Origin: a virus
Lineage: Duplodnaviria > Caudoviricetes
IMG/VR virus record: IMGVR_UViG_3300028045_000022
Location: 1-52,496 of that record
DNA: 52,496 nt
Strand: one strand, 5' to 3'
The position numbers were made by a program, and so were the translations under genes. Shown here piece by piece: positions 602 through 52,496 of this stretch; the first letter of the stretch is position 1, and the number at the start of each line of letters is the position of its first letter. The notes under the pieces were generated by a model. The model searched no databases, was not told the DNA's origin, and worked only from the letters and a program-made list of their open reading frames with translations.

Positions 602-629
602 AAAAAAAGGGATGAGTGACCCATCCCTT
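602..629 (-). terminator. rho-independent terminator
   Basis: Minus strand reads AAGGGATGGGTCACTCATCCC then T7, just downstream of ORF 655-954. Confidence 0.75.
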
Positions 630-654
630 AGTTAATTAAAATTTTCGGTTTGTA

Positions 655-33566: not shown

Positions 33567-36500
33567 CTACCCCAGTTCTGATAACATTGCTGTTATAAGT
33601 CCGTTGGTAACTGTAATTGTTTTACCATCATTACTTGTAAAGCTACCACTTGCACCTGCCGTTCCACCAACACTATAAGTAGCTGAGTCAGTATCACCAC
33701 TAACTGCAAGGTCTTTGTATACTCTTGTATCGCCATCTCTGTCAATTTCAAATAACAGTTTAGCATAGTCTCTAAATGAGTAGGCAACTTTTCCAGCAAG
33801 AGTAGTATGCTCTTTACCTCCAGCAGAATCATCATCTTCTCTAACAGTGAATATCATATCAGAGTCAACCATTCCGTTATTGGTTACTGCACCAATAAGT
33901 AGTCCAATATCAGATATTCCACTTCCTTTAGCTAATATACTTGGCACTCTATATATAGATGAGCCATTTACTATTTGCAGAGTACCATTAGCCACTGCTG
34001 AGGCATCCCAACCATTACCAGTGTTCGGCAATATTGTAAGGTCTTTTCCTGATATATCTCCACCAACAGCGAGGTCGCCACCAACATCAAGGTCGTCAGT
34101 AATTTCAACATCGCCAACTACATCCAGTTCAGCAGAAGGTGTATCTGTTCCAATACCAAGATTATTATTAGCATCGAGTACCATACCAATAACACTACCT
34201 GTACCAAAAAACATATCACCGTCTTCGTAGTTTAGGACATACGCAGTAGTAGGACCAGATAACCCAATACCTAAACCACTGTATAAATCTGTTCCTGAAT
34301 CTGTATTGGTAATCTTAATTAAGTTGGTGTTCGAACTAGCGTTATGCACATGTAGCGGTTGCGCAGGGTCTGCTAATCCGACACCTATATAACCACCATT
34401 AAAGTATGAAATACCATTACCATTAATATTAACAGTATCAGCAGTAGATGTTCCTTTGAGTGCTAATAAACCTGAAGTGTCAGTGTTCTCAAACATATAG
34501 CCAAACAGGGTTCCACTGGCTGTGCGTTCAAGTGCTAATGCTGGTGCACCTACACTATTATTTTTTACAATCAATGGATATGATGAAGCAATTGTTGCTC
34601 CACCAACAGTAAGGTTGTTAGTAACATTAACGCCACCAGCAGGACCAGATTCTATAGACAACTTTTTAGTGCCTTGTGTCCAGAAATCCAACTCACCGCC
34701 TGTTACTGTGTTCTTAACTGATACATCGTTGGATTGTGCTCCAGACGCTGAACCGTAGGCAACCATTACACCAGCAGTTGCACCGTTGCTCGTGTTTAGC
34801 GATAATACTGAGTTTGCATTTGTGTTAGAGCAGGTAGCATTGATAACAGCAGCAGTGGCATCACCAACTGTGAGAACTCCACCAACATCGGCATCTCCAC
34901 CAACATCTAAGTCGCCATTGAGTATATCAACATCACCCAAATTGTCTATAGTTATTCCAGCATTTGAGTTTGCAATGAATGTCATTACATCGGTGTTGTG
35001 GTTATAAGTAATCTGACCTACTGTATTGCTTGCTTCATCACCAAATAGCATGTATTGTATTGAGGTTGATGGACTCAGAAATTGTAAACCAGTGGAACTA
35101 CTATTTTCTACAACCAAGTCAGTAACAGAGGACGCACCGATTGCTCCAGCCGAACCCGAAAATACATGAAGCCTCTCATCAGGAATTGCTGTTCCAATAC
35201 CAACATTACCACCACCAAAACCGAGAATCACATCTGATGCTGTATAGTTGTTGATATATGTACCAGCGTCTGAATCCATAACTAAATACTTACCTGTAGC
35301 ACCTGCAATAGATGCCTCTCCACTTTTACGCTCAATGGTAATTGCTGGTGAAGCGGTTACGCCATCACCAACGGTTAGAGTACCACCAACAGTAAGGTCG
35401 TTAGTAATGTCTGCATCACCTAGCATATCAATACTTTTATCATCATTCATTACCATTGCAATATCTAAAGAGTCGCCACCATTGACATAAAAATTCAATT
35501 TGCCCTTTAGTGCTGATGGTGTAGCTTGTGTAATTACGCCCTGCATTATTCCATGGATGTTGGTATTTGACAACGCCCCTGTACCTGTCATAAGGTATAC
35601 ACCATTAGCACTATCTACGGCTTCAGCACTATTTCTGAGTGCTAATATTGAACCATTACTACCTGAGTTGCTTACGATAGATTCTATCGCCACATTTGCC
35701 TCGCCTAAACCATCTCCAACTACAACCCTGCCGCCAACATCAAGGTCGCTAGAAATATCTACATCGCCAGTATTATTAACTGTAAATAATTCGTTACCTC
35801 CATCATCCCCAACTGATAGAATATCTTGATTTTGAGTTGAATGACCTTTTACTCTGAGTTGAACATTATCGTCTCTACCATCAATGAAGACATTGCCGTT
35901 AATTCCTGCTGCATATGACTCTGACACTTCTATGCTCTTAGTGGTTGTTCCAATAAGCACTCTTTCACCTGTGGAACTTAGGGTTACTTTAGCGTTTCCC
36001 GTAGGGTTTCCAATGGAAGAACCATCTCCAATTATAACCTCGCCATCAACAGTGAGGTCGTTAAAAACCTCAGTATTCCCTGCACCGTCAATGGTGAATA
36101 GGTCAGTACTATTCCAACTCTCTACTTCTAATATATTTGAAGCTGTTTGAGTGGAATGCGCTTGAACCTTCAGTTGGACCTCATCCGCAGTTCCATCAAT
36201 AAATGTTGCTGAGTCATTCACGCTATCAACATACGATTTGATTGCTGATTGAGTTACAAGGCGAGTGTTTGTAGGAGTAGTAAAGCTAGTATCTGTTGAT
36301 ATATCGTTTACACTTACACTTCCTGAAAGGTCAAAAAAACCACCAACAGTGAGAGATCTTAAAATGTCAACATCTCCTGTAGAGTCTATAGTAACCCTGG
36401 TAGCATCATTAGTGTTAATAGCCATGCTGTCGGTTGCGTTGTCGTAAGCTATTTTACCAGAGGAAACATTGTCTCCTAAGCCTAGCGTAGCCACTGAGGA

Positions 36501-39500
36501 AGCGCCAGCCTCAACATAAACACCTGCGTTCGCACCATACGCTATTGTTACCCTGTCGTCAGCAGTTGCAAAGTTCCCTGCAGTCAATACTCCTGCTACA
36601 TCTAAGTCGTCTGTAATATCAACATCGCCTTCAAACTTAGAATCACCAACAACATGAAAATCAGTATCAGGTGTGATATTGTGTACACCCACTCTATCGG
36701 TGGTATTGCGAATCGTTATTGCTCGCTCTCCTGTGCTTGAATATAAATTAGTATAATCTGCCCCTCTTTGTAATAGTGAGGCACCCGAACCATCATTTAG
36801 CCTTACACTTGTTTGGTTAATTAATAATGCATTATTACCACCTAAGTCAACTTGAAGATATTCAGCACCTGTAGTACCATTAAAGTTCATATTTGCAGAG
36901 CCAGTACCATCACCTGTTAAAATTATATTTGGACCATTGTTATCTTTTCTTATTGTGTTAGCCTCAACTGTATTGGCTGTTGCAATACCTGTAACCGTTA
37001 GGCTGCCATCAACATCTCTTGTACCATCAGCCAATAAATATTGTGTATGGTCATCGTCGTCTAAACCTGTTAATGCTCCATGATCTACAATACTACCAGC
37101 GACAGCAGTTCCAATAGATGATGTTCTCCAATCAATAATCATAGCTGCACCTTCAACTTGCTCATAATCCCAAGTGTTATTACCACCTCGAACAATTGCT
37201 GTTGCAAGTGCTTTATATTCAGGAAAAGTTAATCCTGTTGTAGTTATTGTATTTATTTCACTAGCAGCAGCTTCTCTAGCAGCATTTCTAGCAGTATATA
37301 AATTTTGACCAACTACTGTAAATATTTCCTTATTATTAAAATCTAAAGTACCAAAATAATGATATAGTACATAATTATTATTCGGTACATCCTTAAGTGG
37401 TTCTATCGCATCTGTAATATCATTATATTGTGGTTGACCGCCACCATCTATAGCTACACCTGAATCGAAGAAATCAGAATCCCATTCTGGTGTTACAGCA
37501 TCATATTCATACCATACTGATGATATTTGATTATTAGCAGCATTAGGAATGTCTGATATATTCCATCTAATATCTTCGTCCCAAATGAGACCACCACCAA
37601 TACTAATTTCTTTAGTATTATTTACGGGAACTACTAACAACCCCTCATTACCATATCTAGTACCAGTTGCTAAATGATTATATAAATGTGTTTCCCAATT
37701 CATTAATCCGTGAAATTCAAACGATTCTTTCATTGCTGCATCTCTAGCTTTATTCCACACTATTTCAGCTACAAATACATTATCTCTAATTATTGTATAA
37801 ACATTAACTGTATTAGCTGCTTCGACAGTAAGTGTACCTTCAGCATCTGAGAAATAAATCCAGTAAGATTTAGCAGTTGTTGGTATATCTACTGTTATAG
37901 CGTCAGTAGTTTTATTCATTACTTTTTCCGCACCTCTATAATAATACTCATATGTCGAATCAATAGCGTCTATAGTAAAAGAACCAATACCACCAGTACC
38001 ACCAGTTGGATCAAATGACATAGAAACTTTATCTTGTTGCCATTCTCCATTTGCTAGAGATTCAGTATTATATCCATTATTTGTTACTGCACCTTCAGCG
38101 TTAATCGCAAGTTCATCAATAGCGTCTTGTATATTGCTAGAACTTAAACTAGATGTGAAATTCTCATATGTAACTTCATTACCAGCTATATAACCTGATG
38201 ACCAAACTACACCATTTGATCTCATATATAATCCACTAATAGTAGCTGTTAGATTATTATCTACATCGTGCAATTCATATAATTCAAAACCATTTTGCGG
38301 ATTAACAAAAATAGCACCATTACCATTACTTTCAATAACAATAGTTCCAACTATAGAACCGTGTGCTGGTGAATCTGGTTGTGTAGTTTGCCATTCCCCT
38401 GATGTAACTGATGTCCACACTGTTGCACCAGCATCATCGCCACCCGTTACGTCCGTATTTAGATTACGAACAAGTCCAAACGTAGTAACCCAACCTTGAT
38501 CACCATCAGCAATAGCGTGAGTTGTCATACCTATAATATCTTGCGTTTCCTCAGAAGCAGCTGAAGTTAATTGTATTGTCGCTCTTTGTCCTTGTGAACC
38601 ATTAATATAAACAATTTTTCCATCACCGATATCAGATCCAGTATTATTTAATACTCTTACCCAATTTTCTTGACCAAGTTGTAATATCGAATCTGGTACA
38701 TCTGTTTGTAAATTTAATGTATGATCGTCAGAATTATACCAAACCGCGCCTTCTTCTGTAGGATCATCACCGCCAGATTGTTCGAAATGAACCCACTCTG
38801 CATGTAATCCGCTAACAGAACCTTGATACCAACGACTTGTCGCTTCATCACCAAATGATATGTTATCAGAAGTTGGTAAAATATAATTTCCAGATTCATA
38901 TATATTATTAAACGTTGGTATTTGTCCTGATAAAGTAATGATTTCACCATCAATATAATTCTTAGTAGCTAAGTCTGAATCTGCAACAGGATCTACTCCA
39001 CCAACTGGTCCAGTAAAAGGAATAGCGCCATCATCAGTTACATAATTACTTGGACCACCACAATTAGATTCATATCCAGTTCCAACAAAATACGCTTCGG
39101 TAATGGTAACGCCACTATTGTTATAATAACTATACATATTTATAGCGGTCTCAGCAGGAGAAAATGATCCAGACCTAACAAGTGTTTCTGTTAATACACC
39201 TTGTGTTACAGTTGTAGTCATTGTTAATTGACCTGGTGTATTAAAATCTAATTCAACTACAAAATCAGCAGGAACATTATTTACAAATGTAACAGAACCA
39301 TCAACTCTTGAACCGTTAAAATATGTAGCCAATACTCCACCTATTAATCCAGTTCTAGTATTCGATGTTAAAGAACCACCAATATTTAAAGAGTTTGCTC
39401 CACTATCGGGTTGTGCGTCAGGATCAGTCCATTTAATTCTAGCAAAGGTTAGGTCGTATACATCAACATTTGAACCATTCGCTCTAAATATAGAATACTG

Positions 39501-40700
39501 TCTATTAGAAGTAATACCTAAAGGATCTAAATCAACGGAACCGTCACCATTAAATGTGTAGTCAGTAGAAAATTTATAATCAAAATCGACAGATGTAAAA
39601 GCTGTAGCGCCATCTGCTGTCAGACCTCTTGAAAGATATGTTCCACTAATTGGACAATTAGCGTAACCATCACTAGTCGCAACATCAGCTTTTAATGCTA
39701 GTTCAGTTGTTATTTTATCTGCTGACCATAATATATCATCGTCTGTATTATCATCGTCAACTTCAAATCCTGAATCTGTTAAGTTACCATTAGAATTTAA
39801 TGCTGCTAGATTACCATCTGTAGCACCTGACACTTTATCTGCCTTGTCCTCTAATGCAGTATTGAAGTCTGTAGTAGTTACATATGTTTCTTCATTGCCT
39901 AAACAATCACTTTCAAAGTCCGTTCCTACAACATACAACTCATTAAATGTTATTCCATAGGCGTTATCTGCCTGATTATAAGCTATACCAATTGTGTTGT
40001 CACCTGATGTAGTTCCTGTGTGCTGAACTGTTTCTATTGTTGCACCTTGAGTTACTGTTACAGTTACAGTAGTAGTTGCACCGTCAATTACAACGTCTAC
40101 TTCCCAATCTGATGAATCAGGTTGAGCAAATACCGTAGTACCTTGCTTCAGGTTGCCATCGATATAAATGCTGATCTTATAGTTAGCCGAAGTTACCCAA
40201 TTAAACTCGCTTTGCCAATTCCAAGTAAGCTTAGACGGTCTAGTGCCATCAAACATCTGCTCTTTTGTATACTTCATGTGAAATGACTTTACTTTAGTCA
40301 TGTCTATGATGGAACCCTGAGAATAGAATTCTATATCATCGTTTGATGTTCCAGTAGGATCGAAGAACATAGAACCATCAACATTATAAACAAGATCTGA
40401 TACTGGATTGCCTAACCATTTGATGTCATCACTTGAAAACGCCGTTGCTCCACCTTCCGTCAGACCTCTCGCGAGATATGTTTCACCGATAGCACATGAA
40501 CCATAACCTTCCATAGTCGGTACATCAGCTTTAGTGGCTAATGCTTCTTGTACAGATAATCCTGTAACTATATCTGTTGCTAACGCTGTAGATATATTAT
40601 CTGATACACCACTAATTGGTAAACTTTCACCATCTATTGTGTCTCCTATTAGGAAACCATTTTTAATTTTAAATTCATTAGACATAATTTCACTCTCCAT
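33567..40700 (-). CDS. long mosaic tail fibre / receptor-binding protein
   Basis: 2,377 aa. Fibre motifs include DLATKNYID, GNVGIGTAIP, NLGIGTDTPSAELDV, DHGALTGLDDDDHTQY and repeated GDVDITDDLDVGG spacers, with the terminal GKTITVTNGLIT. Confidence 0.85.
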   Translation of the reverse strand: MESEIMSNEFKIKNGFLIGDTIDGESLPISGVSDNISTALATDIVTGLSVQEALATKADVPTMEGYGSCAIGETYLARGLTEGGATAFSSDDIKWLGNPVSDLVYNVDGSMFFDPTGTSNDDIEFYSQGSIIDMTKVKSFHMKYTKEQMFDGTRPSKLTWNWQSEFNWVTSANYKISIYIDGNLKQGTTVFAQPDSSDWEVDVVIDGATTTVTVTVTQGATIETVQHTGTTSGDNTIGIAYNQADNAYGITFNELYVVGTDFESDCLGNEETYVTTTDFNTALEDKADKVSGATDGNLAALNSNGNLTDSGFEVDDDNTDDDILWSADKITTELALKADVATSDGYANCPISGTYLSRGLTADGATAFTSVDFDYKFSTDYTFNGDGSVDLDPLGITSNRQYSIFRANGSNVDVYDLTFARIKWTDPDAQPDSGANSLNIGGSLTSNTRTGLIGGVLATYFNGSRVDGSVTFVNNVPADFVVELDFNTPGQLTMTTTVTQGVLTETLVRSGSFSPAETAINMYSYYNNSGVTITEAYFVGTGYESNCGGPSNYVTDDGAIPFTGPVGGVDPVADSDLATKNYIDGEIITLSGQIPTFNNIYESGNYILPTSDNISFGDEATSRWYQGSVSGLHAEWVHFEQSGGDDPTEEGAVWYNSDDHTLNLQTDVPDSILQLGQENWVRVLNNTGSDIGDGKIVYINGSQGQRATIQLTSAASEETQDIIGMTTHAIADGDQGWVTTFGLVRNLNTDVTGGDDAGATVWTSVTSGEWQTTQPDSPAHGSIVGTIVIESNGNGAIFVNPQNGFELYELHDVDNNLTATISGLYMRSNGVVWSSGYIAGNEVTYENFTSSLSSSNIQDAIDELAINAEGAVTNNGYNTESLANGEWQQDKVSMSFDPTGGTGGIGSFTIDAIDSTYEYYYRGAEKVMNKTTDAITVDIPTTAKSYWIYFSDAEGTLTVEAANTVNVYTIIRDNVFVAEIVWNKARDAAMKESFEFHGLMNWETHLYNHLATGTRYGNEGLLVVPVNNTKEISIGGGLIWDEDIRWNISDIPNAANNQISSVWYEYDAVTPEWDSDFFDSGVAIDGGGQPQYNDITDAIEPLKDVPNNNYVLYHYFGTLDFNNKEIFTVVGQNLYTARNAAREAAASEINTITTTGLTFPEYKALATAIVRGGNNTWDYEQVEGAAMIIDWRTSSIGTAVAGSIVDHGALTGLDDDDHTQYLLADGTRDVDGSLTVTGIATANTVEANTIRKDNNGPNIILTGDGTGSANMNFNGTTGAEYLQVDLGGNNALLINQTSVRLNDGSGASLLQRGADYTNLYSSTGERAITIRNTTDRVGVHNITPDTDFHVVGDSKFEGDVDITDDLDVAGVLTAGNFATADDRVTIAYGANAGVYVEAGASSVATLGLGDNVSSGKIAYDNATDSMAINTNDATRVTIDSTGDVDILRSLTVGGFFDLSGSVSVNDISTDTSFTTPTNTRLVTQSAIKSYVDSVNDSATFIDGTADEVQLKVQAHSTQTASNILEVESWNSTDLFTIDGAGNTEVFNDLTVDGEVIIGDGSSIGNPTGNAKVTLSSTGERVLIGTTTKSIEVSESYAAGINGNVFIDGRDDNVQLRVKGHSTQNQDILSVGDDGGNELFTVNNTGDVDISSDLDVGGRVVVGDGLGEANVAIESIVSNSGSNGSILALRNSAEAVDSANGVYLMTGTGALSNTNIHGIMQGVITQATPSALKGKLNFYVNGGDSLDIAMVMNDDKSIDMLGDADITNDLTVGGTLTVGDGVTASPAITIERKSGEASIAGATGKYLVMDSDAGTYINNYTASDVILGFGGGNVGIGTAIPDERLHVFSGSAGAIGASSVTDLVVENSSSTGLQFLSPSTSIQYMLFGDEASNTVGQITYNHNTDVMTFIANSNAGITIDNLGDVDILNGDLDVGGDADVGGVLTVGDATAAVINATCSNTNANSVLSLNTSNGATAGVMVAYGSASGAQSNDVSVKNTVTGGELDFWTQGTKKLSIESGPAGGVNVTNNLTVGGATIASSYPLIVKNNSVGAPALALERTASGTLFGYMFENTDTSGLLALKGTSTADTVNINGNGISYFNGGYIGVGLADPAQPLHVHNASSNTNLIKITNTDSGTDLYSGLGIGLSGPTTAYVLNYEDGDMFFGTGSVIGMVLDANNNLGIGTDTPSAELDVVGDVEITDDLDVGGDLAVGGDISGKDLTILPNTGNGWDASAVANGTLQIVNGSSIYRVPSILAKGSGISDIGLLIGAVTNNGMVDSDMIFTVREDDDSAGGKEHTTLAGKVAYSFRDYAKLLFEIDRDGDTRVYKDLAVSGDTDSATYSVGGTAGASGSFTSNDGKTITVTNGLITAMLSELG

Positions 40701-43846: not shown

Positions 43847-44095
43847 CTATTTCTCCTGTATATCTACATTCAATTCATTATTTATTACTTCTAACTCAAA
43901 TATTACACCATCTAAATCTATATCATCTTTCAAATTACCTATCAAATCTATGATCTCGTCAGAGGCCATTTGAGACCCTAACATATTTAATGACTCCTCT
44001 AGTATCCCTATTGCACTTTCTATATGCTCTGATGCACTCTCTGGCTCATCTGATGCGTTGTATAATTCATTTAATGCTCTATCTAAACTTTTCAT
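43847..44095 (-). CDS. small acidic helical protein
   Basis: ATG 44095 follows GGAGGA; TATACTAT at 44158-44165. Confidence 0.6.
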   Translation of the reverse strand: MKSLDRALNELYNASDEPESASEHIESAIGILEESLNMLGSQMASDEIIDLIGNLKDDIDLDGVIFELEVINNELNVDIQEK

Positions 44096-44233
44096 CTTAT
44101 CCTCCAAGGATATTAATCTAATATATATGATCAACGCGTTTTTGTCAATCATATTCTATAGTATATTCACTTTTCCAATTTTATCACCGTTTCGAAATGT
44201 GCAGTGTTCACTATCCCTATATATAGAATCTAG

Positions 44234-44389
44234 TTAAAATTTTATTTTTAATCCTGAAATTAGAGATTTAATGCGATGTCTAATTAGTGGACCAACTGTA
44301 ACCATATCATCTTGAGTTAAAACTGTACCTTTAATAGTATTACAAAACCAACAACATGTACAAATTTTATAATCTTTATCAAATTTCAT
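44234..44389 (-). CDS. 51-aa Cys-rich peptide
   Basis: Manual translation MKFDKDYKICTCCWFCNTIKG...; AAGGA RBS. Confidence 0.5.
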   Translation of the reverse strand: MKFDKDYKICTCCWFCNTIKGTVLTQDDMVTVGPLIRHRIKSLISGLKIKF

Positions 44390-44583
44390 AATTAGTCCTT
44401 TATATAGATTTTGTTAATTTTTTTTGTGAGACGGGAATATTAACGTTTGTATATATACATATATATGTAGCCCACCCCCTTTTATATAATATAGTACAAA
44501 ACAGGGATCCTCGCAAGTATTTTATATAAAATTTCATCATCTGCAACTGCTAGGTTATTATATTATGATCAAAGTAGTTTCGA

Positions 44584-44612
44584 TTGATTCGAGCCTACCC
44601 CCTGTTTATAAT
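44584..44612 (+). promoter_or_regulatory. sigma70/sigmaA-type early promoter
   Basis: TTGATT (44584-44589), 17-nt spacer, TATAAT (44607-44612); predicted +1 at about 44619. Confidence 0.7.
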
Positions 44613-44619
44613 AATAACT

Positions 44620-44747
44620 CTGTGGAAAGTACGGAAAACACAGTATAAACCTTGTACATAACAGGATAAAGCAGTTCCTGAACATATCGTTAAACACTGC
44701 GTAATACCTAGTACAGCTAGGAGAGAGGTGGCTATCATGGCTATCGT
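44620..44747 (+). ncRNA. structured leader, copy 1 (full length)
   Basis: Four hairpins with compensatory changes relative to copy 3; invariant GTGGAAAGTACGGAAAACAC. Confidence 0.7.
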
Positions 44748-45009
44748 AAGAAGAGATGAGCTTGTTGTTGGTGATTGTTTCCATGAACTTAAGGGTAACT
44801 ATGACGAATCATTCAAGTACGTAGGTATTGTATCACTACCATGTGGTAAGTGCTATAGATATGAGCGTACAAACAAAATGACAGGTGTTAAAGACATCAG
44901 TCATACACTGTGTGATTGGGGTATATTTAAGGTCGATGTGTACTATAGCCCTGAAGTTGAAAAGGAAATAGAAACATGTGGCCTATGGAATGAGGAGTAC
45001 GGTGCATAG
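44737..45009 (+). CDS. hypothetical early protein
   Basis: ATG 44737 follows GAGGTGG (MAIVRRDEL...). Confidence 0.7.
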   Translation: MAIVRRDELVVGDCFHELKGNYDESFKYVGIVSLPCGKCYRYERTNKMTGVKDISHTLCDWGIFKVDVYYSPEVEKEIETCGLWNEEYGA

Positions 45010-45033
45010 GTAATATGTGTCATACAACATAAT

Positions 45034-45104
45034 TCGAAACTAGTCGTCCTAATAGGGTGGCTAGTCTGTAGGGGATAAGCTTCCTGCACTGATGAGATAG
45101 CTTA
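45034..45104 (+). ncRNA. type II hammerhead ribozyme
   Basis: Core GAAA (45036-45039), GUC cleavage triplet (45064-45066) and CUGAUGA (45089-45095). Stem III is 12 bp, stem I 7 bp and stem II 2 bp; loop I UAAGCU pairs with 3' AGCUUA. Confidence 0.92.
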
Positions 45105-45140
45105 CGTGGAAAGTACGGAAAACACGTTAAAACTTGTACA
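45104..45140 (+). repeat. structured leader, copy 2 (truncated)
   Basis: ACGTGGAAAGTACGGAAAACACGTTAAAACTTGTACA is identical to 45445-45481. Confidence 0.85.
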
Positions 45141-45181
45141 TTTCGAATTATTAATTTAAAGCTTTTTGAAAGGAGCTTATT

Positions 45182-45367
45182 ATGAAAGTTTATAAAACTA
45201 TTGGTGCAAAATGGCGTTCAGAAAAAATTGTTAATATTAACACTAAAAATGAAGAAGATAAGAGGTATATGATTAAGCTTGCGACTAAGGTTGTAGGTGC
45301 TGGGCTTGTATCTGGTGTTATATACATCGGATATTGTTTAGTATGGATAGCTGCTGGCTTAAACTAG
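45182..45367 (+). CDS. small membrane protein
   Basis: AAGGAG RBS; C-terminal hydrophobic helix. Confidence 0.7.
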   Translation: MKVYKTIGAKWRSEKIVNINTKNEEDKRYMIKLATKVVGAGLVSGVIYIGYCLVWIAAGLN

Positions 45368-45383
45368 TAGATATTCATATTTA

Positions 45384-45437
45384 GAACCCAAATGTGCCTT
45401 CTTGATAGTTCGCTATTGAGAGGGCCATTTTAGGTTT
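45384..45437 (+). promoter_or_regulatory. long hairpin (candidate RNase III site)
   Basis: GCCTTCTTGATAG-TTCG-CTATTGAGAGGGC (13 bp with G-U pairs), extended by AAATG/CATTT and AACC/GGTT. Confidence 0.55.
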
Positions 45438-45444
45438 TATATCT

Positions 45445-45570
45445 ACGTGGAAAGTACGGAAAACACGTTAAAACTTGTACACAACAGGTTACAGTAGTGC
45501 CTGAGCATTTCGCTAAATACTACACAGATTCTAGTACAACTAGAGGAAAGGTGGCTATCATGGCTATCGT
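45445..45570 (+). ncRNA. structured leader, copy 3 (full length)
   Basis: Homologous to 44620-44747 with compensatory base changes. Confidence 0.7.
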
Positions 45571-47740
45571 TAAAACTTTCGCAGCACTCAAAAACATCGT
45601 AACATTTACTAACAACGTTGACATTAAACGTATCAGTAAAGAACAAGAAATCATAAACACTATGTCGAAGGAACAGTACTTCGGCCTAAGCGAACAGGAG
45701 TTTAAAACAATGACAAAGTCTGACTGGTACAAGAATGAAGAAACAAGATTGGATGCTTGGTTTAACCGAAAGGAAAGAGGTCTAGATAATGGACCAATCA
45801 TAAACGTTGATATTATAAAAGAGGCCAGAGCAAAGATGCATGCTGGTATAACTGAAGCTGATAACTTAAGAATTGCACTTAACCGTGCTGAGACAAGGAA
45901 TAACAATATGAAAAAGAACGAACTTCGTGCAGAGAAACGTGCTGCTAAGAAACAAGGGACTGAGATGTCTCTAACTATACATGGGTCTAGTTTTAAAGAT
46001 GAAATAAAGTCTAAATCTAACAAAGGAGTTAGTATGAGAAAGATAAGTATGTCCAAAGAGGCATGGGTTGAGACAATGGTTGCTGAAAATGCGGATTATA
46101 GGTATGGTCCATCAAGATTCTGCAATTGTTTTGATCATAAGGCAATATTAAAGGAGGCTATCAGTGAGCTTAAGGATGAGATCGATTGTCTTGATTCTAT
46201 CACAGATGAAGATAGAATATTATATCTTGAGTCTCAGGTTTTGGACTTGGAAGATATAGTGTATGCACCTCATATAAAGACGGAGTTGAGTACAGATGGA
46301 GCATTTGTATGTCCTGTTTGTAATGAATCATACAAGCACGAAGACTTAAGATTCGATTACATCGACGAAGATGAAATCAGAATTGATACAGAATATGCAG
46401 ATAGACGTAATGCGATTCTAGAGTCATTTAAATCTCCAATGCATAACCCAGAAATGAGTAATGAAATACCTGTTGTGATCGATAAGTGTAAGAAGGTTAA
46501 CCTTATTGGTAAGAACAAAGACACAATAGTAGAAAATGTAAAAGCGCTATTTAATACAGATAGTAATGGATCTCTATCATATGAGGATTATAATAAGTTT
46601 GAAGTTATTGAGAGTCTGATAATGACACCTGATGAACTTATTGCATCTGAAACTAGTAGTGATGGACTTGGTAATGAGTGTATGTCATATGAAGCGTTTA
46701 TGGGTTATGATTCTAATGATATGGAACGTAATGATGGTGATGATACAAATGATACACATGATGAATTGGATATAGCTGGGGCTGTAGATAAGATCTTGCC
46801 TTGGATTGGTGAATCTGTAGATATTAGAGGTATGCTCGACTTCAATGTAAGAAATTCTTTCGAGACAACACATGGTCATAAGTTTATACTAGGTAAGACT
46901 GAAGTTAAAGGTATGTTCGCTGACTACTATTTCACAAATCACACAATACTTAGAGAAAGGATTCAAAAGAAGGCAGAAGCTGCTAAAGCTGGCATAAATA
47001 AAGTGAATCGTATGATAGATATAGAACATGCAGATGGTAGTATTACCGAAGAGCGTAATATATCAGATGATGCATATAATACGTTAATTGAACGTCTAAC
47101 TGATGAATATTACTATTGGATGGCTTGGACTGAAGATGAAGAATGGAATGGTTATAAGAAGGTTCAAAATGGTAGAAATAAATCTATAGATCATGTTAGA
47201 GCTGGTGGTACACTTAAATACTACGTGTATATCAATAGAGATGGTAAGATATGTTTCGGATCTCATCCAGATACATATACAATGACGAGTGCAAAATATA
47301 TCGAACACGGCGATACATACATGTTAGCTGAGGATGACTATGTTGCAACTGCATATAAAGTATTTACTAAGATAGCACCAAGAATAGTTTGGAACTATAA
47401 CACATATAAAGGATATAACTTTGTAAATATAGGTATTAAAGGTAAGGATGGAAAAGTACATATGGGTTATGGTGGATTCGAGAATGGTCTTAAAGATGTG
47501 CTTCTAGATATTTGTGGTCAACCTAGGATGGCTGGAATAAACACATATCGTCAGTTTAATAACTTAGTTGAAACAGATGGTATGACTAAATTTGATTCAT
47601 CTAATGAGTTAATATCAAAACTAGCAGAAATGTTAAAGATCGATATTGTTCAATCAATTAAGAAACATAGATCAAGTAACAAATGGTTAGCTGATATTGA
47701 TGTTAAAGATGATAAAACTTATCGCTTTGAACTCAAATAA
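45560..47740 (+). CDS. large hypothetical early protein (726 aa) with an acidic middle and a CPVC motif
   Basis: ATG 45560 shares its RBS and start context with 44737; in-frame internal AAGGAG plus ATG at 46034. Confidence 0.75.
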   Translation: MAIVKTFAALKNIVTFTNNVDIKRISKEQEIINTMSKEQYFGLSEQEFKTMTKSDWYKNEETRLDAWFNRKERGLDNGPIINVDIIKEARAKMHAGITEADNLRIALNRAETRNNNMKKNELRAEKRAAKKQGTEMSLTIHGSSFKDEIKSKSNKGVSMRKISMSKEAWVETMVAENADYRYGPSRFCNCFDHKAILKEAISELKDEIDCLDSITDEDRILYLESQVLDLEDIVYAPHIKTELSTDGAFVCPVCNESYKHEDLRFDYIDEDEIRIDTEYADRRNAILESFKSPMHNPEMSNEIPVVIDKCKKVNLIGKNKDTIVENVKALFNTDSNGSLSYEDYNKFEVIESLIMTPDELIASETSSDGLGNECMSYEAFMGYDSNDMERNDGDDTNDTHDELDIAGAVDKILPWIGESVDIRGMLDFNVRNSFETTHGHKFILGKTEVKGMFADYYFTNHTILRERIQKKAEAAKAGINKVNRMIDIEHADGSITEERNISDDAYNTLIERLTDEYYYWMAWTEDEEWNGYKKVQNGRNKSIDHVRAGGTLKYYVYINRDGKICFGSHPDTYTMTSAKYIEHGDTYMLAEDDYVATAYKVFTKIAPRIVWNYNTYKGYNFVNIGIKGKDGKVHMGYGGFENGLKDVLLDICGQPRMAGINTYRQFNNLVETDGMTKFDSSNELISKLAEMLKIDIVQSIKKHRSSNKWLADIDVKDDKTYRFELK

Positions 47741-47743
47741 TAT

Positions 47744-47766
47744 TAACTGGGGCTTCGGCCCCTTTT
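47744..47766 (+). terminator. terminator-like hairpin (repeated at 48111)
   Basis: TAACT-GGGGC-TTCG-GCCCC-TTTT. Confidence 0.75.
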
Positions 47767-47803
47767 CTAAGGTATTTAATTAATTTTTAACAAAGGATAT
47801 ATC

Positions 47804-48109
47804 ATGATGAAGATTACAGGAAGTTACAGAATTTGGAAAAAAGGTGGGAACTTTAATAACCAGTTTCTACAAATGTATCTAATCATTGATGGTAAGAGAT
47901 TTGCCTTTAGTGGTTATGTTGATGAGAAGGATATGAGTCAAGTTAATATCTTATTAGCTGCTCATTGGGGTAATCTTAAGGTAACTAAGGATCTTAAGAA
48001 TGACAGAAAATCTGAACATGATGAGTATGTAGATTGGTGTTATGCTAGAGAGCTACACTTGAGTACATATATTGTACCATTTCTAATGCAGATTAAATAT
48101 ATAAAATAA
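47804..48109 (+). CDS. hypothetical protein
   Basis: AAGGA RBS; ORF track. Confidence 0.7.
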   Translation: MMKITGSYRIWKKGGNFNNQFLQMYLIIDGKRFAFSGYVDEKDMSQVNILLAAHWGNLKVTKDLKNDRKSEHDEYVDWCYARELHLSTYIVPFLMQIKYIK

Positions 48110-48110
48110 T

Positions 48111-48133
48111 TAACTGGGGCTACGGCCCATTTT
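48111..48133 (+). terminator. terminator-like hairpin, second copy
   Basis: TAACTG-GGGC-TACG-GCCC-ATTTT. Confidence 0.6.
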
Positions 48134-48148
48134 CTAAAGGATATTATT

Positions 48149-48454
48149 ATGAAAAAGAATATAAAAGTAAGAGAAATTAGTGTAACGATGATGGATAATG
48201 GTAAATATAAGCATGCACTTAGAGTATTTGCAGAATACACATTAATGATTGACATGAAGGTATATATTGAATATAACATAAACACTAATGTGTATAATGT
48301 ATACGTTGGATATATGGCTGCGCATAAAGTAATACTTGAAAACTGTTCAAAAGTAGAAGCTTGGGATAGATTATTAAGTATAAAACATTCAGAAGTATTA
48401 GATATTATTAAAGACATTCGTCGTATGGAATATCTAGCATCTCTTGAATCATAA
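48149..48454 (+). CDS. hypothetical protein
   Basis: AAGGA RBS; ORF track. Confidence 0.7.
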   Translation: MKKNIKVREISVTMMDNGKYKHALRVFAEYTLMIDMKVYIEYNINTNVYNVYVGYMAAHKVILENCSKVEAWDRLLSIKHSEVLDIIKDIRRMEYLASLES

Positions 48455-48459
48455 GGGAT

Positions 48460-48640
48460 TGTTCCTCCGCACACCTCCGCACCCAAAAGCATGCGTCTCG
48501 TCGTTCCTCCTCACCTTACTTTGGTGGTCGCTTCGCTCCATGGGGTTATAGCGGCACTCGTTCCTCGGCCTTATGGACCACTCGTTCCTCGTTCGGATTT
48601 TGGGTGGTCGGTAACATCTAACTGTCACCTCCGCACACAA
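48460..48640. other. GC-rich branched non-coding element
   Basis: CACCCAAAA/TTTTGGGTG closing stem; CTCGTTCCTCG twice; CCTCCGCAC three times. Confidence 0.55.
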
Positions 48641-48764
48641 CAACAGTGGACACGCTCAGTATTATCTGTAACATATATCGTTTGTGTACGCAGGAGTTAA
48701 AAATGTATAGAATGTCTTATTCAGTGTCTATCAAATGGTTGGTAGGCGCAAACAAGGGGTTGTT

Positions 48765-49073
48765 ATGAGAATAACAGTCGGTAGAGTTGGTACCAACAAG
48801 TTTGGTGTAACCAATATCAAGGTTGATAGAACTACCATCCTTGGTAACCCTTTTCCGATGAAGAATCAGTCTGACAATGAACGCACTCGCGTATGTTTAG
48901 AATATGTTAAGTATTTCGTACGCATGGTTAATTCAGCTGGTCCTTTTCGGGACGAAGTTGGGAGAATATATAAGCTTGCTAAGAGTGGTAAGTCTATTAA
49001 TCTCCAATGTCATTGTGCACCTAAGCAGTGTCACGCAGATACAATCAATAAATTTATAGAAAAATATTTATAG
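48765..49073 (+). CDS. DUF4326-like protein
   Basis: VDRTTILGNPF...LQCHCAPKQCHADTI matches the DUF4326 signature (GNPF; LxCxCxPxxCHxD). Confidence 0.8.
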   Translation: MRITVGRVGTNKFGVTNIKVDRTTILGNPFPMKNQSDNERTRVCLEYVKYFVRMVNSAGPFRDEVGRIYKLAKSGKSINLQCHCAPKQCHADTINKFIEKYL

Positions 49074-49118
49074 AATGTCTTAATTGATGTTCTATTTAAC
49101 TTTTTTAAAGGAGTTCAC

Positions 49119-49313
49119 ATGGGTGAATTTATGAAAGCTTTTAAGAATGACTTAGCAATAAGTTTATTCGGTAGGAGCCAAGATGAAGCACAGGATAAAG
49201 CAATTTGTGTTTCTTGTGGCGGAGATGCAAGCGAATTCGTTGACGAAGTAAGTCAGCACGAATACTCCATTTCAGGAATGTGTCAAAAGTGTCAAGATGA
49301 ATTTTTTGGCTAA
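49119..49313 (+). CDS. small zinc-binding protein
   Basis: CVSCG...EYSISGMCQKCQDEFFG; AAGGAG RBS. Confidence 0.75.
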   Translation: MGEFMKAFKNDLAISLFGRSQDEAQDKAICVSCGGDASEFVDEVSQHEYSISGMCQKCQDEFFG

Positions 49314-49392
49314 ATAAAATTAGAATGTCTTATTCAGTGTCTCTTAGGTGAGGCACTACTATAAGATTTTTTAACATTTTCAAGGATTTATT

Positions 49393-49545
49393 ATGAAAAA
49401 TTTAGTTGATCTTTTTAGCTCAGACGTGTCACATTTGTTACATTTAGGTTTTAGGCCTGAAGATTTCAATCCAAGACCCGTAGATAAAGTTGAGTTTGGA
49501 TACAAGGAAGATTTCTTAGATACAGAGTTTGATGACTTTGACTAA
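49393..49545 (+). CDS. 50-aa acidic peptide
   Basis: Manual translation MKNLVDLFSSDVSHLLHLGFRPEDFNPRPVDKVEFGYKEDFLDTEFDDFD; AAGGA RBS. Confidence 0.65.
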   Translation: MKNLVDLFSSDVSHLLHLGFRPEDFNPRPVDKVEFGYKEDFLDTEFDDFD

Positions 49546-49599
49546 GAAAAATAAATAGAATGTCTTAATTGATGTTATTCAAAGGAGTTCATCACCAAA

Positions 49600-50160
49600 T
49601 AGCCTTATATCTCTGACTGGTGAATCAGAGGGAAATTATTAGATAAGAGCAAACTAATGATTAAATATGAGGCCACCGCTCGTTTTTAACTAAAGGAGTA
49701 GCAGAAATGCTATAGTTTCAGACCTGAGTCATGTCACAAAACTGACTTATTACGGACTATATGGGGGTAGGATCTCTTCACTTATGAACAGTAATGTTCT
49801 CGGTGAGTAGTCTGGGGGTTTGGTACTGACCTAATTAGTAAAGTACTACTGGTTTTTAATGATTGCACCAGTTATCCTAAAACAATCATAATTCGTATCT
49901 AAAATCTGGGAAGGCTTTGCGGAGCTGGAGTAAAAGATACGTGCATTTTTGTAGTAGATCTTAATAACAACACTACATTGATGTACTTAAATATTAAAGT
50001 TGTTATAGGAGTTGTGTACACTTCTTTGATGGTATAAAACCAAAGTGCATTTATGCGTAATAATTTGATATTGTGTCTAGTAACGCGCCAATATCATCTT
50101 ACTGAAAGACTACAGCGTGTTAAAGGAGTTGGGTACACTTCTAATAAAAACAAGTGCCCA
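49600..50160 (+). ncRNA. ORF-free array of structured RNA modules (three-way junctions plus six H-type pseudoknots)
   Basis: No ORF of 60 aa or more. Pairings are listed in the findings; non-Watson-Crick stem positions are G-U on the + strand. Confidence 0.75.
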
Positions 50161-50230
50161 TTATATTTTATAAGATATACTAAAATGAATAGTGCGTCTT
50201 ATTAAGTATAATTTTTAACTAGGAGGATAT

Positions 50231-50512
50231 ATGAGAGATCATTTATCAAAATTGAACTTCAAATATGACGACAAAGGTCAACAAGCTATTCTTTTCTTCC
50301 TTAATGGATATGGTGTATCTGTTGTATGGGGAGAAGGTAGGTACGGTGATGGTGTTGATTCTTGGGAATTGGCTGTACTCAAAGGTGAAATGGATAATTG
50401 GGAACTATGTTATGACACTGATGTAACTTGTGATGTTATGGGTTGGTTAGATCGCAGTGAGGTTAACAAGGCAATCGAAGATGTTTACAAGTTAGAATTT
50501 GTAAATGAATAG
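50231..50512 (+). CDS. hypothetical phage protein
   Basis: AGGAGG RBS; FLNGYGVSVV...WELAVL...DVMGWL pattern. Confidence 0.75.
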   Translation: MRDHLSKLNFKYDDKGQQAILFFLNGYGVSVVWGEGRYGDGVDSWELAVLKGEMDNWELCYDTDVTCDVMGWLDRSEVNKAIEDVYKLEFVNE

Positions 50513-50677
50513 AGTGTCTTAATTATTGATTCTTGATTAAGGAGGAACCACAATTGAGGGTTTACTAAGAGAGTTAGGTATCTACTGTAAAAGATATTAA
50601 TTCCATCTAAGAAGAGAGGGATGGTATAACAAATACTTCTCAAACTAATTTTTTTAAAACAATATCTAGGAGATATT

Positions 50678-51103
50678 ATGAATAACACAGCTGACAACAC
50701 CAGGACTTCAAACACTATCAGTGACCTTTTCGATGCAGGAAATCCAGTAGCTAGAGAACAGATAAAAACCAGAACTGTAAGAAAAAGCGAGAAGGATCTC
50801 ATAATCCAACAAATTAAGAATGAAGTCAATGTTATTAAAGTTAACAGAGATAACTTACTTAAAACTGCTAACGGTGATAAAATGCTTACACACCAGATAA
50901 ATAGTGAAGCGAAGACACGTATCCTTGCATTGCAGATTAAATTTCAACCTGCCATTAAAAATGCCAGCATTGACGTTGAAGCAGTTGGGGAAGCATTATT
51001 TTCTATGGGTGGTGAAAAAGTAGGTGCATTTGTCGCAACTCCAGTTAAAGCAGCTAAAGGGTTTTTTGGTTCTCTTATGAGAAGAGCAGGTATAATCAAA
51101 TAA
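50678..51103 (+). CDS. hypothetical protein
   Basis: AGGAG RBS; ORF track. Confidence 0.7.
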   Translation: MNNTADNTRTSNTISDLFDAGNPVAREQIKTRTVRKSEKDLIIQQIKNEVNVIKVNRDNLLKTANGDKMLTHQINSEAKTRILALQIKFQPAIKNASIDVEAVGEALFSMGGEKVGAFVATPVKAAKGFFGSLMRRAGIIK

Positions 51104-51127
51104 TAAGGTTTCTTCGAAATTCCCCAG

Positions 51128-51160
51128 GTCATCTGCCGAATGGTGGGTGGCCGCTTTATT
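51128..51160 (+). terminator. terminator-like hairpin
   Basis: GGTCATCTGCC-GAAT-GGTGGGTGGCC followed by GCTTTATT. Confidence 0.45.
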
Positions 51161-51194
51161 AACTAATTTAATAATAATTATCAAAGGATATGTC

Positions 51195-51605
51195 ATGTTT
51201 AATATTAAGAATGCTGTAGAGAAAAAAGTAATCGGTAACAAAATTAGGACCTTTATCGAAGATCTTGATACTCAATCTATACTTGAAATTGGTGAAATTA
51301 TCGGAGACACATTTAAAAAGATATTAATATCTGAATCTTTAATGTTAACTGATATGGTTAAAGACAACAAAGAACAATTAATTAAACTAGCTGAAGATAA
51401 TTCTAATCTTATTATATCCTTAAATAATTCTTGGGATATGTGGACCGAAGCTAAAACTAATAAAAAGAATCAAGATAATGTCAAATCTATTAAATCTAAT
51501 ATTAATAGAAGTTGGAATGAGTTTCTTGAAAGAGTAGATTGCATAAACGAAGATAGTAACAAGGCTGTTGCTAACAATAAGTATATCGCTAAATTTAATA
51601 AGTAA
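51195..51605 (+). CDS. hypothetical protein
   Basis: ATG 51195 follows AAGGA. Confidence 0.7.
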   Translation: MFNIKNAVEKKVIGNKIRTFIEDLDTQSILEIGEIIGDTFKKILISESLMLTDMVKDNKEQLIKLAEDNSNLIISLNNSWDMWTEAKTNKKNQDNVKSIKSNINRSWNEFLERVDCINEDSNKAVANNKYIAKFNK

Positions 51606-51607
51606 TC

Positions 51608-51958
51608 ATGGAAAGCATATTAATTTTCGGTATCTTAATGGCGCTTGCTGCTGGATTATTTTGGGTAATCGAGGCTCAACCGTATGTCAGAAAATTAAAA
51701 GAATTAAAGAAAGAACACGCTAATGCTACCGCTAACGTTTCAACTATACGTAAATATGCTAGTAATACAGCATTTACTATTAAAACTGGAGCACATATAT
51801 ATCTATTGTTACCTTTAGGTATAGATCTATTTATTACAAGTTCATTAGCATCAATGTTAGGTTTTGGTGGAATGGTCGGTGGTATCATCGGATTATTCAT
51901 CTCTAATATCATTTCATTATTTATTATAGTTGTAGCTGCAAGTATGAATGGAAAGTAG
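51608..51958 (+). CDS. membrane protein (about 3 TM segments)
   Basis: Hydrophobic segments at both the N- and C-termini. Confidence 0.7.
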   Translation: MESILIFGILMALAAGLFWVIEAQPYVRKLKELKKEHANATANVSTIRKYASNTAFTIKTGAHIYLLLPLGIDLFITSSLASMLGFGGMVGGIIGLFISNIISLFIIVVAASMNGK

Positions 51959-51964
51959 GACATT

Positions 51965-52195
51965 ATGGTTAAAGATTTAACAATCGCTGTCGCTGTTAGG
52001 ACCACAGAGCATGGAAACTCAGGGTATATATTATATATGCCCAATAGTTCAGGTAACGGTCGTTATGGATGGTATACAACGTCACATGATACTGATCATA
52101 TGATTAGACAAGAACTTCAAAATGATGCTGAGGATTATGGAAGATCATTAGTTATCTGTACACCTGATAGACAAGCATATTATGGAATTAAATAA
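51965..52195 (+). CDS. hypothetical protein
   Basis: AGGA RBS; ORF track. Confidence 0.65.
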   Translation: MVKDLTIAVAVRTTEHGNSGYILYMPNSSGNGRYGWYTTSHDTDHMIRQELQNDAEDYGRSLVICTPDRQAYYGIK

Positions 52196-52237
52196 TACCA
52201 ACAAACAGGTTATGACTAAATAACGACTTTGTGGTAA

Positions 52238-52265
52238 GGCCCCCCGAGCGGATGCGAGGGGGGCT
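52238..52265. other. GC-rich hairpin closing the plus-strand block
   Basis: GGCCCCCC-GAGCGGATGCGA-GGGGGGCT. Confidence 0.5.
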
Positions 52266-52496
52266 ATTCATTCTATTTTTTCTAATTCTCAATTACTACA
52301 AATAAACATCAGTTCACTCTAGGGCCAAAGAAATATATTTCACTATATTTCAAGTACTTAGAGAAAACCTTGTTTTCCGTTCACTATCCCTATATTTTCA
52401 CTAAAATATACGTAAGTTTTACTAAAATAACGCAAATGCATTGAATTTGGTTAAAATTTTGCTAAAATACGCGCGTAAGAGGAGTTTGAAAGTACC

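Follow-up and report, generated by a model that had tools for sequence, protein, structure and literature searches.

A repeated multi-hairpin leader, probably a selected RNA structure, ahead of the first rightward genes of an uncultured marine myovirus

The 52,496-base IMG/VR virus record IMGVR_UViG_3300028045_000022, the whole of which was analyzed and is referred to here as the window, contains a repeated leader of short hairpins immediately upstream of genes 1 and 3 of its rightward gene block and a truncated copy upstream of gene 2; these are the first three plus-strand genes past a divergent junction. The repeat is real and statistically supported and belongs to no catalogued RNA family, and we consider it highly probable that it represents an RNA secondary structure maintained by selection. 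The best reading available is that of a cassette, so far a singleton, whose arrangement resembles that of the PeSL cassettes of T4-like phages. An earlier inspection of the sequence (the original prediction) had described a four-hairpin leader with compensatory changes in front of the first three early genes; the sequences and stems that it named are all present at their positions, and the genes are indeed the first three on the plus strand, with early expression being a presumption. Its proposal of a cis-acting structured RNA is borne out by the compensatory changes, the G.U pairs, the folding of the plus strand, and the proximity of a predicted promoter. A fifth hairpin, exact 38-nucleotide (nt) repeats flanking gene 2, and the PeSL-like arrangement had escaped it.

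Copies, fold, and pattern of constraint

The 20-mer GTGGAAAGTACGGAAAACAC occurs three times, always on the plus strand (44622, 45106, and 45447), against a chance expectation of 0, there being no match in any of 100 dinucleotide-preserving shuffles. Homology between copies 1 and 3 extends for about 129 nt, starting one base 5' of the first hairpin (H1) and running through codon 4 of genes 1 and 3; the two copies differ by 25 substitutions in 127 aligned columns (approximately 80% identity) and by a 2-nt insertion or deletion between H1 and H2; outside this stretch, their flanks are unrelated. Their longest identical block is the 22-mer AGGTGGCTATCATGGCTATCGT (44726-44747 and 45549-45570), which spans the Shine-Dalgarno (SD) sequence, the ATG, and 11 coding nucleotides and is itself the fifth hairpin, H5 (GGUGGCUA/UGGCUAUC, -6.6 kcal/mol), in which the SD sequence and two bases of the AUG are paired. 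The four hairpins described originally thus stand, with H5 and the 2-nt difference to be added. Copy 2 retains H1 and half of H2, as had been noted, and is in addition an exact repeat of copy 3: the two agree at every base of a sharply bordered 38-nt stretch (45103-45140 = 45444-45481) and are unrelated beyond it. The Logan unitig of this 38-mer has a depth of 31.6 versus 11.4 to 14.5 in its flanks, which suggests two to three copies, and the contigs of the metagenome run show no variants and simply break at the repeat.

Within the stems, sequence has changed and pairing has been kept. H1 reads CTGTG/CACAG in copy 1 and ACGTG/CACGT in copies 2 and 3, so that two of its five pairs are changed on both sides while all 15 cells of the three copies are paired. 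The H3 outer stem is GCAGT/ACTGC in copy 1 versus GTAGT/ACTAC in copy 3, the H3 inner stem is AAC/GTT versus AGC/GCT, and H4 is CCTAG/CTAGG versus TCTAG/CTAGA; H2 (CTTGT/ACAGG, with a U.G pair) is invariant. Taken jointly, H2 to H5 have 52/52 cells paired, with three pairs altered on both sides, and when the partners are slid by 1 to 3 columns, the paired cells fall to 27 to 58% (H2 to H5) and 0 to 53% (H1). In order to avoid circularity, the test fold was the centroid obtained from copy 3 alone (35 pairs), which was then applied to copy 1. Copy 1 keeps 33 of the 35 pairs, 27 being unchanged, 5 being compensatory doubles (two in H1, one in each of the outer and inner stems of H3, and one in H4), and 1 being a compatible one-sided change; the 2 broken pairs lie at helix ends. 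When 25 random substitutions were placed in copy 3, at least five compensatory pairs arose in 11/200,000 trials (5.5e-5), and with the observed transition bias (16/25), they arose in 57/500,000 trials (1.1e-4); two or fewer broken pairs were seen in 0.4% of the transition-biased trials. The five compensatory changes originally reported between copies 1 and 3 therefore survive on an independent fold of copy 3, at a chance level of about 1e-4. The built-in alignment-shuffle control gave 69/500 for H2 to H5 and 46/500 for H1 and has almost no power with two to three rows.

The distribution of the remaining differences is also uneven. Linkers differ at 10/21 columns and hairpin and internal loops at 5/41 (Fisher p = 0.004), substitutions in stems fall in paired positions in 10/10 cases, and the 14-nt purine-rich loop of H1 is identical at 14/14 positions in all three copies. 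Such a distribution is what one expects of a folded RNA with loops that something recognizes, and not of a duplication too recent to have diverged.

Several features distinguish the two strands. U.G or G.U pairs occur in H2 of both copies, at the top of H4 in copy 1, and three times in H5, and since these become C.A mismatches on the opposite strand, the plus strand is favored. The plus-strand folds have energies of -28.4 kcal/mol (z = -0.95) for copy 1 and -30.2 kcal/mol (z = -2.32) for copy 3, the latter being a minimum free energy that 2/200 shuffles equal; the corresponding minus-strand values are -25.8 (z = -0.04) and -19.5 kcal/mol (z = +1.32), with unrelated shapes. Together, the G.U pairs and the computed energies favor a plus-strand RNA. 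Folded as single-stranded DNA, H1 with its 14-nt loop reaches no more than -2.5 to -3.0 kcal/mol, which by these calculations makes it a poor candidate for extrusion from duplex DNA. A hidden antisense gene was rejected: the frame in which antisense open reading frames (ORFs) cross the conserved 20-mer differs between copies 1 and 3, and the repeat is thus not coding. Two alternative pairings were seen. In copy 1, the 5' arm of H1 has another partner, UACGG, within the H1 "loop," giving a stem of 4 to 5 bp with the pentaloop GAAAG, and a helix competing with H2 and H3 can form from CAGGA/UCCUG in copy 1 and CAGGU/GCCUG in copy 3. The latter is a possible switch, one consistent change being too little to argue from.

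Table 1. Positions of the leader copies, genes, and predicted signals in the window and of the start cassettes in the relative G004
Feature	Position	Strand	Remarks
Leader copy 1	44619..44747	+	H1 to H5; SD AGGUGG; AUG at 44737
Copy 1 H1	44620-44624/44639-44643	+	loop GAAAGUACGGAAAA
Copy 1 H2	44651-44655/44661-44665	+	
Copy 1 H3	outer 44671-44675/44696-44700; inner 44681-44683/44689-44691	+	
Copy 1 H4	44707-44711/44717-44721	+	
Copy 1 H5	44727-44734/44738-44745	+	covers SD AGGUGG and AUG at 44737
Leader copy 2	45103..45140	+	H1 45104-45108/45123-45127, linker, 5' half of H2
Leader copy 3	45444..45570	+	H1 to H5; SD; AUG at 45560
Copy 3 H1	45445-45449/45464-45468	+	
Copy 3 H2	45474-45478/45484-45488	+	
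Copy 3 H3	outer 45494-45498/45519-45523; inner 45504-45506/45512-45514	+	
Copy 3 H4	45530-45534/45540-45544	+	
Copy 3 H5	45550-45557/45561-45568	+	covers SD and AUG at 45560
P2, sigma-70-like promoter (predicted)	44584..44612	+	TTGATT, 17-nt spacer, TATAAT
Gene 1	44737..45009	+	90 aa, starts MAIV, orphan
Gene 2 SD-occluding hairpin	45159..45178	+	AAGCUUUU/AGGAGCUU, 8 bp; predicted SD pairing 0.74
Gene 2	45182..45367	+	61 aa, hydrophobic C terminus; between two exact 38-nt repeats
Terminator-like hairpin	45396..45425	+	13 pairs, then CATTTTAGGTTTT; directly upstream of copy 3
Gene 3	45560..47740	+	726 aa, starts MAIV
Intrinsic terminator (predicted)	47749..47762	+	GGGGCTTCGGCCCC and T run; after gene 3
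2377-aa ORF	33567-40700	-	tail gene block; Gly/Thr/Asp-rich, repetitive, fiber-like
G004 start cassettes	L065 14436-14470, ~15790-15835, 16086-16125, ~17060-17085		

Genomic setting, start regions, and searches

CheckV places the completeness of the record at 23%, and the window is therefore a fragment of a roughly jumbo-size genome, that of an uncultured marine myovirus. The single sequencing run that holds this DNA is a seawater metagenome, possibly its source. On the minus strand, positions 1 to 44389 are given over to virion genes, those for the tail sheath, the portal, the large terminase, and head proteins along with a 2377-aa ORF, and the rightward block starts with gene 1 after the divergent junction. 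Judged by its large terminase subunit (TerL), the phage is nearest among cultured ones to Moorella phage MTATph1 and Bacillus phage 0305phi8-36 (27 to 30% identity), and the SD sequences of the window genes are of the canonical AGGAG type. The predicted promoter P2 matches the consensus at 10/12 positions and is tied with 52168-52196 as the best plus-strand site in 44000-52496; sigma-70-like sites as a class are not enriched (34 found versus 39.7 expected). The -10 element of P2 ends 7 nt 5' of the first paired base of H1, so H1 of copy 1 would lie 0 to 2 nt from the 5' end of the transcript.

Five contigs with related terminases (66 to 80% identity) were found, and only one of them, G004 (TerL 75% identical), reaches the junction. 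It has a homologous divergent junction, with AGCCCACCCCC and, about 110 nt later, GCCYAC...TGT...TATAAT, and its ATG follows about 40 nt past the -10 element, across a small ATAGTC-AGGA-GACTAT hairpin and with no leader. As this relative keeps the promoter and does not have the leader, the multi-hairpin unit appears to be an insertion in the 5' untranslated region (UTR) downstream of a conserved promoter. Two side observations concern the same region. The word AGCCYACCCCC occurs twice in the plus strand of the divergent junction (44469-44479 and 44592-44602), and in G004 (L065 ~14291 and ~14407), the first copy is exact and the second is partial (GCCCAC), a pattern that points to a tandem pair of promoters, or of factor sites, preceding the rightward block. 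G004 also has a repeated start cassette of its own, in which an ATAGTC/GACTAT hairpin immediately precedes the ATG and holds the SD sequence in its loop and which is followed in 3/4 genes by a common hydrophobic N terminus, MFT....

The predicted folds occlude the SD sequences of all three genes. The leader of gene 2 shares only H1 with those of genes 1 and 3 but has a separate SD hairpin, and the predicted SD pairing probabilities are 0.80 for gene 1, 0.74 for gene 2, and 0.90 for gene 3, against a median of 0.40 in 48 predicted start regions. These regions were picked by a crude automatic SD rule, which for gene 3 chose an in-frame internal ATG with a strong SD sequence (46034). The start of gene 3 at 45560 is supported by its alignment with the homologue P0003 from residue 4 onward.

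The original prediction had recognized no family, and the Rfam search now made leaves it so: with Rfam 15 at gathering thresholds, there were 0 matches in the whole window, and at E <= 10 in 44400-45700, there were six subthreshold matches only (12 to 21 bits versus thresholds of 41 to 80), to unrelated small nucleolar RNA, microRNA, or small RNA families. Exact searches returned what appear to be chance matches: the 16-mer of the H1 loop had 22 loci in the viral contigs of IMG/VR, all single and in coding sequence without the stem; the 20-mer had one match in the JGI metagenome contigs, in a putative MutS-type gene (judged by reading frame), and 0 in the GTDB genome contigs; and the 19-nt SD/ATG block had 0 in the viral contigs. 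A gapped pattern of the junction motif gave two chance matches in the viral contigs, in GC-rich coding DNA, and blastn of 44400-47800 against GenBank phages gave no match. A covariance model built from copies 1 and 3 (R1) found only the three known copies in the window; its next match there (606-713, minus strand, 21.6 bits) was rejected as a gene end with its terminator, and on the five terminase relatives, its best matches were 15.7 and 10.8 bits, with broken pairs. These five contigs have neither the leader motif nor gene 3 nor the 2377-aa protein. Relatives sought through the 656-aa and 2377-aa proteins gave partial, domain-level matches only, and in the 37 loci fetched through neighboring proteins, no leader motif was present within 4 mismatches. 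Likewise, gene 3 alone, or a profile of it with its three homologues, retrieved no locus from the viral contigs, and the profile retrieved none from the genome contigs. Literature searches of open-access papers found nothing describing the leader element.

Mechanism, comparison with known systems, and rival explanations

We suggest, with a confidence somewhat short of even, that the repeat is a modular structured 5' leader that acts posttranscriptionally, with H5 masking the ribosome binding site and a trans-acting factor recognizing the hairpins upstream. Duplication would have carried the module to the genes at the head of the rightward block. H1, a 5-bp hairpin presenting an invariant purine-rich 14-nt loop, would serve as a 5'-proximal recognition or protection module common to the three copies, which in the full leaders of genes 1 and 3 would be extended by H2 to H4, with their conserved loops and freely drifting linkers. 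By pairing the SD sequence with the first codons, H5 may hold translation initiation at a low default level; at gene 2, H1 is combined with a different SD-occluding hairpin. The upstream hairpins, above all the H1 loop, might be what the trans-acting factor recognizes, whether an RNA-binding protein of phage or host or the 30S subunit itself, and this factor would set translation and/or shield the 5' end from decay, and the orphan genes 1 to 3 would in this way be tied into one small regulon. Copies 2 and 3 could be reached by transcriptional read-through, by processing, or from an unrecognized promoter. The original prediction offered a put- or nut-like antiterminator, a translational enhancer, or a phage protein-binding site as functions; of these, the anatomy leans toward translation or mRNA stability, because the full copies are fused at a fixed distance to the SD/AUG hairpin and because copy 3 sits after, and not before, the terminator-like hairpin at 45396-45425.

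Some familiar 5' elements share parts of this design. The ompA-type 5' stem-loop, STAB-SD, and the SP82 polypurine sequence are 5' stabilizers, generic features with no conserved-fold family; the position of H1 at 0 to 2 nt from the predicted start and its purine-rich, SD-like loop recall them, but they explain neither H2 to H4 nor the invariance of the loop. RNA thermometers such as ROSE and fourU are multi-hairpin 5' UTRs in which the last hairpin pairs the SD sequence and AUG, conserved upstream loops not being typical; H5 similarly pairs both with several G.U pairs, whereas the present leader has conserved upstream loops and no Rfam thermometer model matched it even at E <= 10. The nut sites of phage lambda consist of boxA and a boxB hairpin with a GNRA-like pentaloop, read by an N-type arginine-rich protein. 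The alternative H1 pairing gives a GAAAG pentaloop, and no N-like protein was seen among the orphan products.

The closest parallels in arrangement are the PeSLs (promoter-early stem-loops), which published accounts describe as sigma-70-like promoters with stem-loop cassettes that end in an SD sequence and start codon, stand before ORFans, and mediate the shuffling of such ORFans in T4-like phages (PMC2839356; PMC4122927). In both cases, short repeated cassettes precede the orphan genes of a large myovirus, have an SD sequence and start codon at the 3' end (here in the full copies, going by sequence), combine these with a promoter and/or terminator hairpin, and as direct repeats flank a small ORFan, here gene 2. 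The promoter component is present before copy 1 (10/12 match), takes the form of TTGAGA-16-TATATC, found by eye, before copy 3, and is lacking before copy 2; the terminator component is present before copy 3, absent before copy 1, and replaced before copy 2 by a hairpin without a T run. PeSLs as so described, however, are about promoter sized, with one GC-rich stem-loop that acts as a terminator or attenuator and adjoins or overlaps a strong promoter, whereas here the predicted transcribed leader is about 105 to 127 nt long and has four to five hairpins, a loop that never varies, and compensatory changes; the sequences are not similar, and the present phage is not related to those that carry PeSLs. 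The put RNA of phage HK022 is described as about 70 nt with two long stem-loops, near an early promoter and in more than one diverged copy per genome, binding the beta' zinc-binding domain of host RNA polymerase (RNAP) and suppressing termination without a protein factor (PMC9378689). The present leader resembles it as a stem-loop RNA just downstream of a predicted promoter and in two full copies but differs in having more and shorter hairpins, a fusion to SD and AUG (put not being attached to a ribosome binding site), and three copies within 1 kb. The hairpin promoters of phage N4 have a 5- to 7-bp stem and a 3-nt loop in a GC-rich heptamer centered at -11, act as extruded DNA, and serve a virion-packaged single-subunit RNA polymerase that the phage encodes (PMC4496689). 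Like them, the present element stands in three copies where a gene block begins, its loop bases conserved and its stem bases variable yet complementary; against this, H1 has a 5-bp stem with a 14-nt A-rich loop and is weak as DNA, copy 1 lies downstream of a conventional promoter, and the window, about 23% of the genome, yielded no virion polymerase. Giant phages are reported to produce small RNAs that derive from 5' UTRs and have no assigned function (PMC11512511), and structured leaders in such phages are therefore not without precedent.

Four other explanations of the repeat were weighed. One, which we regard as unlikely, is that the 38-mer (H1 and the next 13 nt) works at the DNA level, as a promoter or operator recognized by a phage-specific polymerase, sigma factor, or regulator whose gene lies in the unseen 77% of the genome, that only H3 to H5 are transcribed, and that the three copies are three early promoters, recalling N4. 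The identity of copies 2 and 3 over exactly 38 nt, a promoter-like size with sharp borders, speaks for it, as do the -10-like sequence TATAAA/TAAAAC between H1 and H2, the lack of sigma-70-like promoters upstream of copies 2 and 3, and the absence of covariation in H2; N4 promoters are described as tolerating variable stem bases if the hairpin is kept (PMC4496689), which would also explain the two compensatory changes in H1. Yet copy 1 lies inside the transcription unit of a promoter conserved in G004, H1 is far from the 3-nt-loop mini-hairpins of N4, no good -35 element was found inside the 38-mer at a spacing of 16 to 18 nt, and no polymerase gene was seen in the window. The 2377-aa ORF, considered as a virion polymerase, found no support, being repetitive and fiber-like with no Pfam, PHROG, or PDB match. 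A dimeric operator, moreover, predicts conserved half-sites and a free spacer, and the opposite is seen. We think it distinctly unlikely that the leader is instead a put-like RNA of processive antitermination, which would bind host RNAP and carry it through 45396-45425, 47749-47762, and beyond, so that gene 3 and the downstream genes are expressed from P2. Copy 1 is placed just downstream of a promoter as putL is, and HK022 has two similar put copies (PMC9378689); RNA-only antiterminators are likewise described in other mobile elements (EAR, canT, and conAn2; PMC11658703), terminator-like hairpins lie downstream in the same orientation, and gene 3 is without a good sigma-70-like promoter of its own. 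On the other side stand the three copies within 950 nt, with copy 3 past the first terminator; the fixed-distance fusion to the SD/AUG hairpin, needless for an RNA that modifies RNAP; four to five hairpins of 3 to 8 bp over about 105 to 127 nt, against two long irregular stem-loops in about 70 nt; and the lack of a match to any Rfam family, although whether Rfam holds a put model was not checked.

That the repeats are homology patches of a PeSL-type recombination cassette, shuffling orphan genes in a setting of generic hairpins of transcript ends or 5' ends and no dedicated trans factor, is in our estimate very unlikely as a full account. The perfect 38-bp direct repeats around gene 2 do look, by analogy, like the footprint of PeSL-like exchange, genes 1 to 3 are orphans or close to it, copy 3 joins a terminator hairpin and a weak promoter-like sequence to a leader with SD and ATG, and G004 carries its own, different repeated SD/ATG cassette. 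Homology, however, requires neither five compensatory changes nor an invariant 14-nt loop nor loops conserved above linkers, and copies 1 and 3, at about 80% identity with no identical block longer than the 22-mer, are too diverged to be good substrates, yet the fold is kept. Exchange of this kind is compatible with a posttranscriptional leader and does not replace it. We find it hardly credible that the repeat is a neutral duplication remnant with pairings arisen by chance or by template switching in quasi-palindromes: there are just two full copies, and the shuffle control is not significant, but the random-substitution nulls put at least five compensatory pairs at about 1e-4, flanks and linkers have near-random identity while the loops and the 22-mer are kept, and five separate helices would each require a template-switch event of their own.

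Several observations count against the posttranscriptional leader that we favor. Only two complete copies and a partial one were available, all of them from the same 52-kb fragment; no relative carrying the element was found from which covariation could be read independently. The pairs of H2 and H5 show no variation, energy alone supporting them; the individual hairpins are weak (-3.3 to -6.8 kcal/mol), and the whole-leader fold of copy 1 reaches a z score of just -0.95. SD occlusion at genes 1 to 3 is above the median yet not unique in this genome, 4/45 other start regions reaching 0.74. A sigma-70-like scan and reading by eye gave no convincing promoter upstream of H1 in copies 2 and 3, the by-eye sequence before copy 3 falling below the rule of the scan and having its TTGAGA within the 3' arm of the terminator hairpin, and the identity of the 38-mer between these copies stops at a promoter-like length. 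No candidate trans factor was identified; the search for a trans-acting RNA complementary to the H1 loop gave one 10-mer in the window, at 52371, where about one is expected by our estimate. Finally, no RNA run is listed as holding the stretch, the sole holder being the DNA metagenome.

The known repeated cassettes that precede orphan early genes in T4-like phages are DNA-level promoter and terminator modules, whereas most of the unit repeated here is predicted to be transcribed, as a leader of several hairpins. Very few phages and mobile elements are known to regulate early transcription by RNA alone. Should the leader govern translation, stability, or read-through, it would add a new motif to the cis-regulatory RNAs and offer a handle on coregulation in giant phages and on their exchange of fast-evolving takeover genes. 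The finding is limited in that the element is a singleton in one fragment. A bolder version, which we rate as rather unlikely, would make the leader a new type of regulon-tag RNA, its H1 loop being read by polymerase (in the manner of put, needing no protein and with an unrelated fold), by a dedicated phage RNA-binding protein, or by the 30S subunit, so that immediate-early orphan genes are switched on and off together and the module doubles as a portable homology patch through which new genes enter the regulon.

Neighboring genes and further repeats

The product of gene 1 found only itself among 5.8 billion proteins and belongs to no Pfam or PHROG family. Its Atlas model (predicted local distance difference test score of 0.61) has small beta-barrels as nearest structural neighbors, at TM scores of about 0.5, including the EF-P N-terminal/KOW-like, RapA Tudor, and CarD/TRCF RNAP-interacting domains, which may be taken as a lead only that the protein might touch polymerase, ribosome, or RNA. 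Gene 2 likewise has no Pfam or PHROG family. For gene 3, a word-indexed protein search gave no match, and three remote homologues (29 to 34% identity) were found among 1.84 billion representatives; the family has the common motifs GPxRFCNCH and GFxCPxCG, the cysteines of which suggest zinc binding. The 2377-aa protein has no Pfam, PHROG, or PDB sequence match, and its partial relatives in the viral contigs cover residues 551 to 1308 only.

Downstream of gene 3, a near-identical terminator cassette, ATTAACTGGGGCT(T/A)CGGCCC with a T run, follows each of two consecutive plus-strand genes (47742-47782 and 48109-48149). A second repeat family, AAATNNATAGAATGTCTTAATT, stands on the plus strand before most of the later plus-strand genes (48701, 49064, 49312, 49549, 50183, and 50503) and, with its TAGAAT -10-like core and no -35 element, looks like a separate promoter class distinct from the leader. 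Region 48455-48700 is GC rich and ORF poor with internal repeats CTCGTTCCTC and CCTCCGCACAC, in surroundings of 33% GC; it has no credible Rfam match and may be a noncoding RNA. The approximately 600 nt of 49590-50200, downstream of one promoter-like repeat, contain no convincing ORF, have no credible Rfam match, and carry a 25-nt repeat at 50001 and 50118. The last part of the window, 52200-52496 on the plus strand, combines a GC-rich hairpin, the words TTCACTA and ACTAAAAT repeated after it, and two sigma-70-like sites, and could hold iterons or another promoter cluster.

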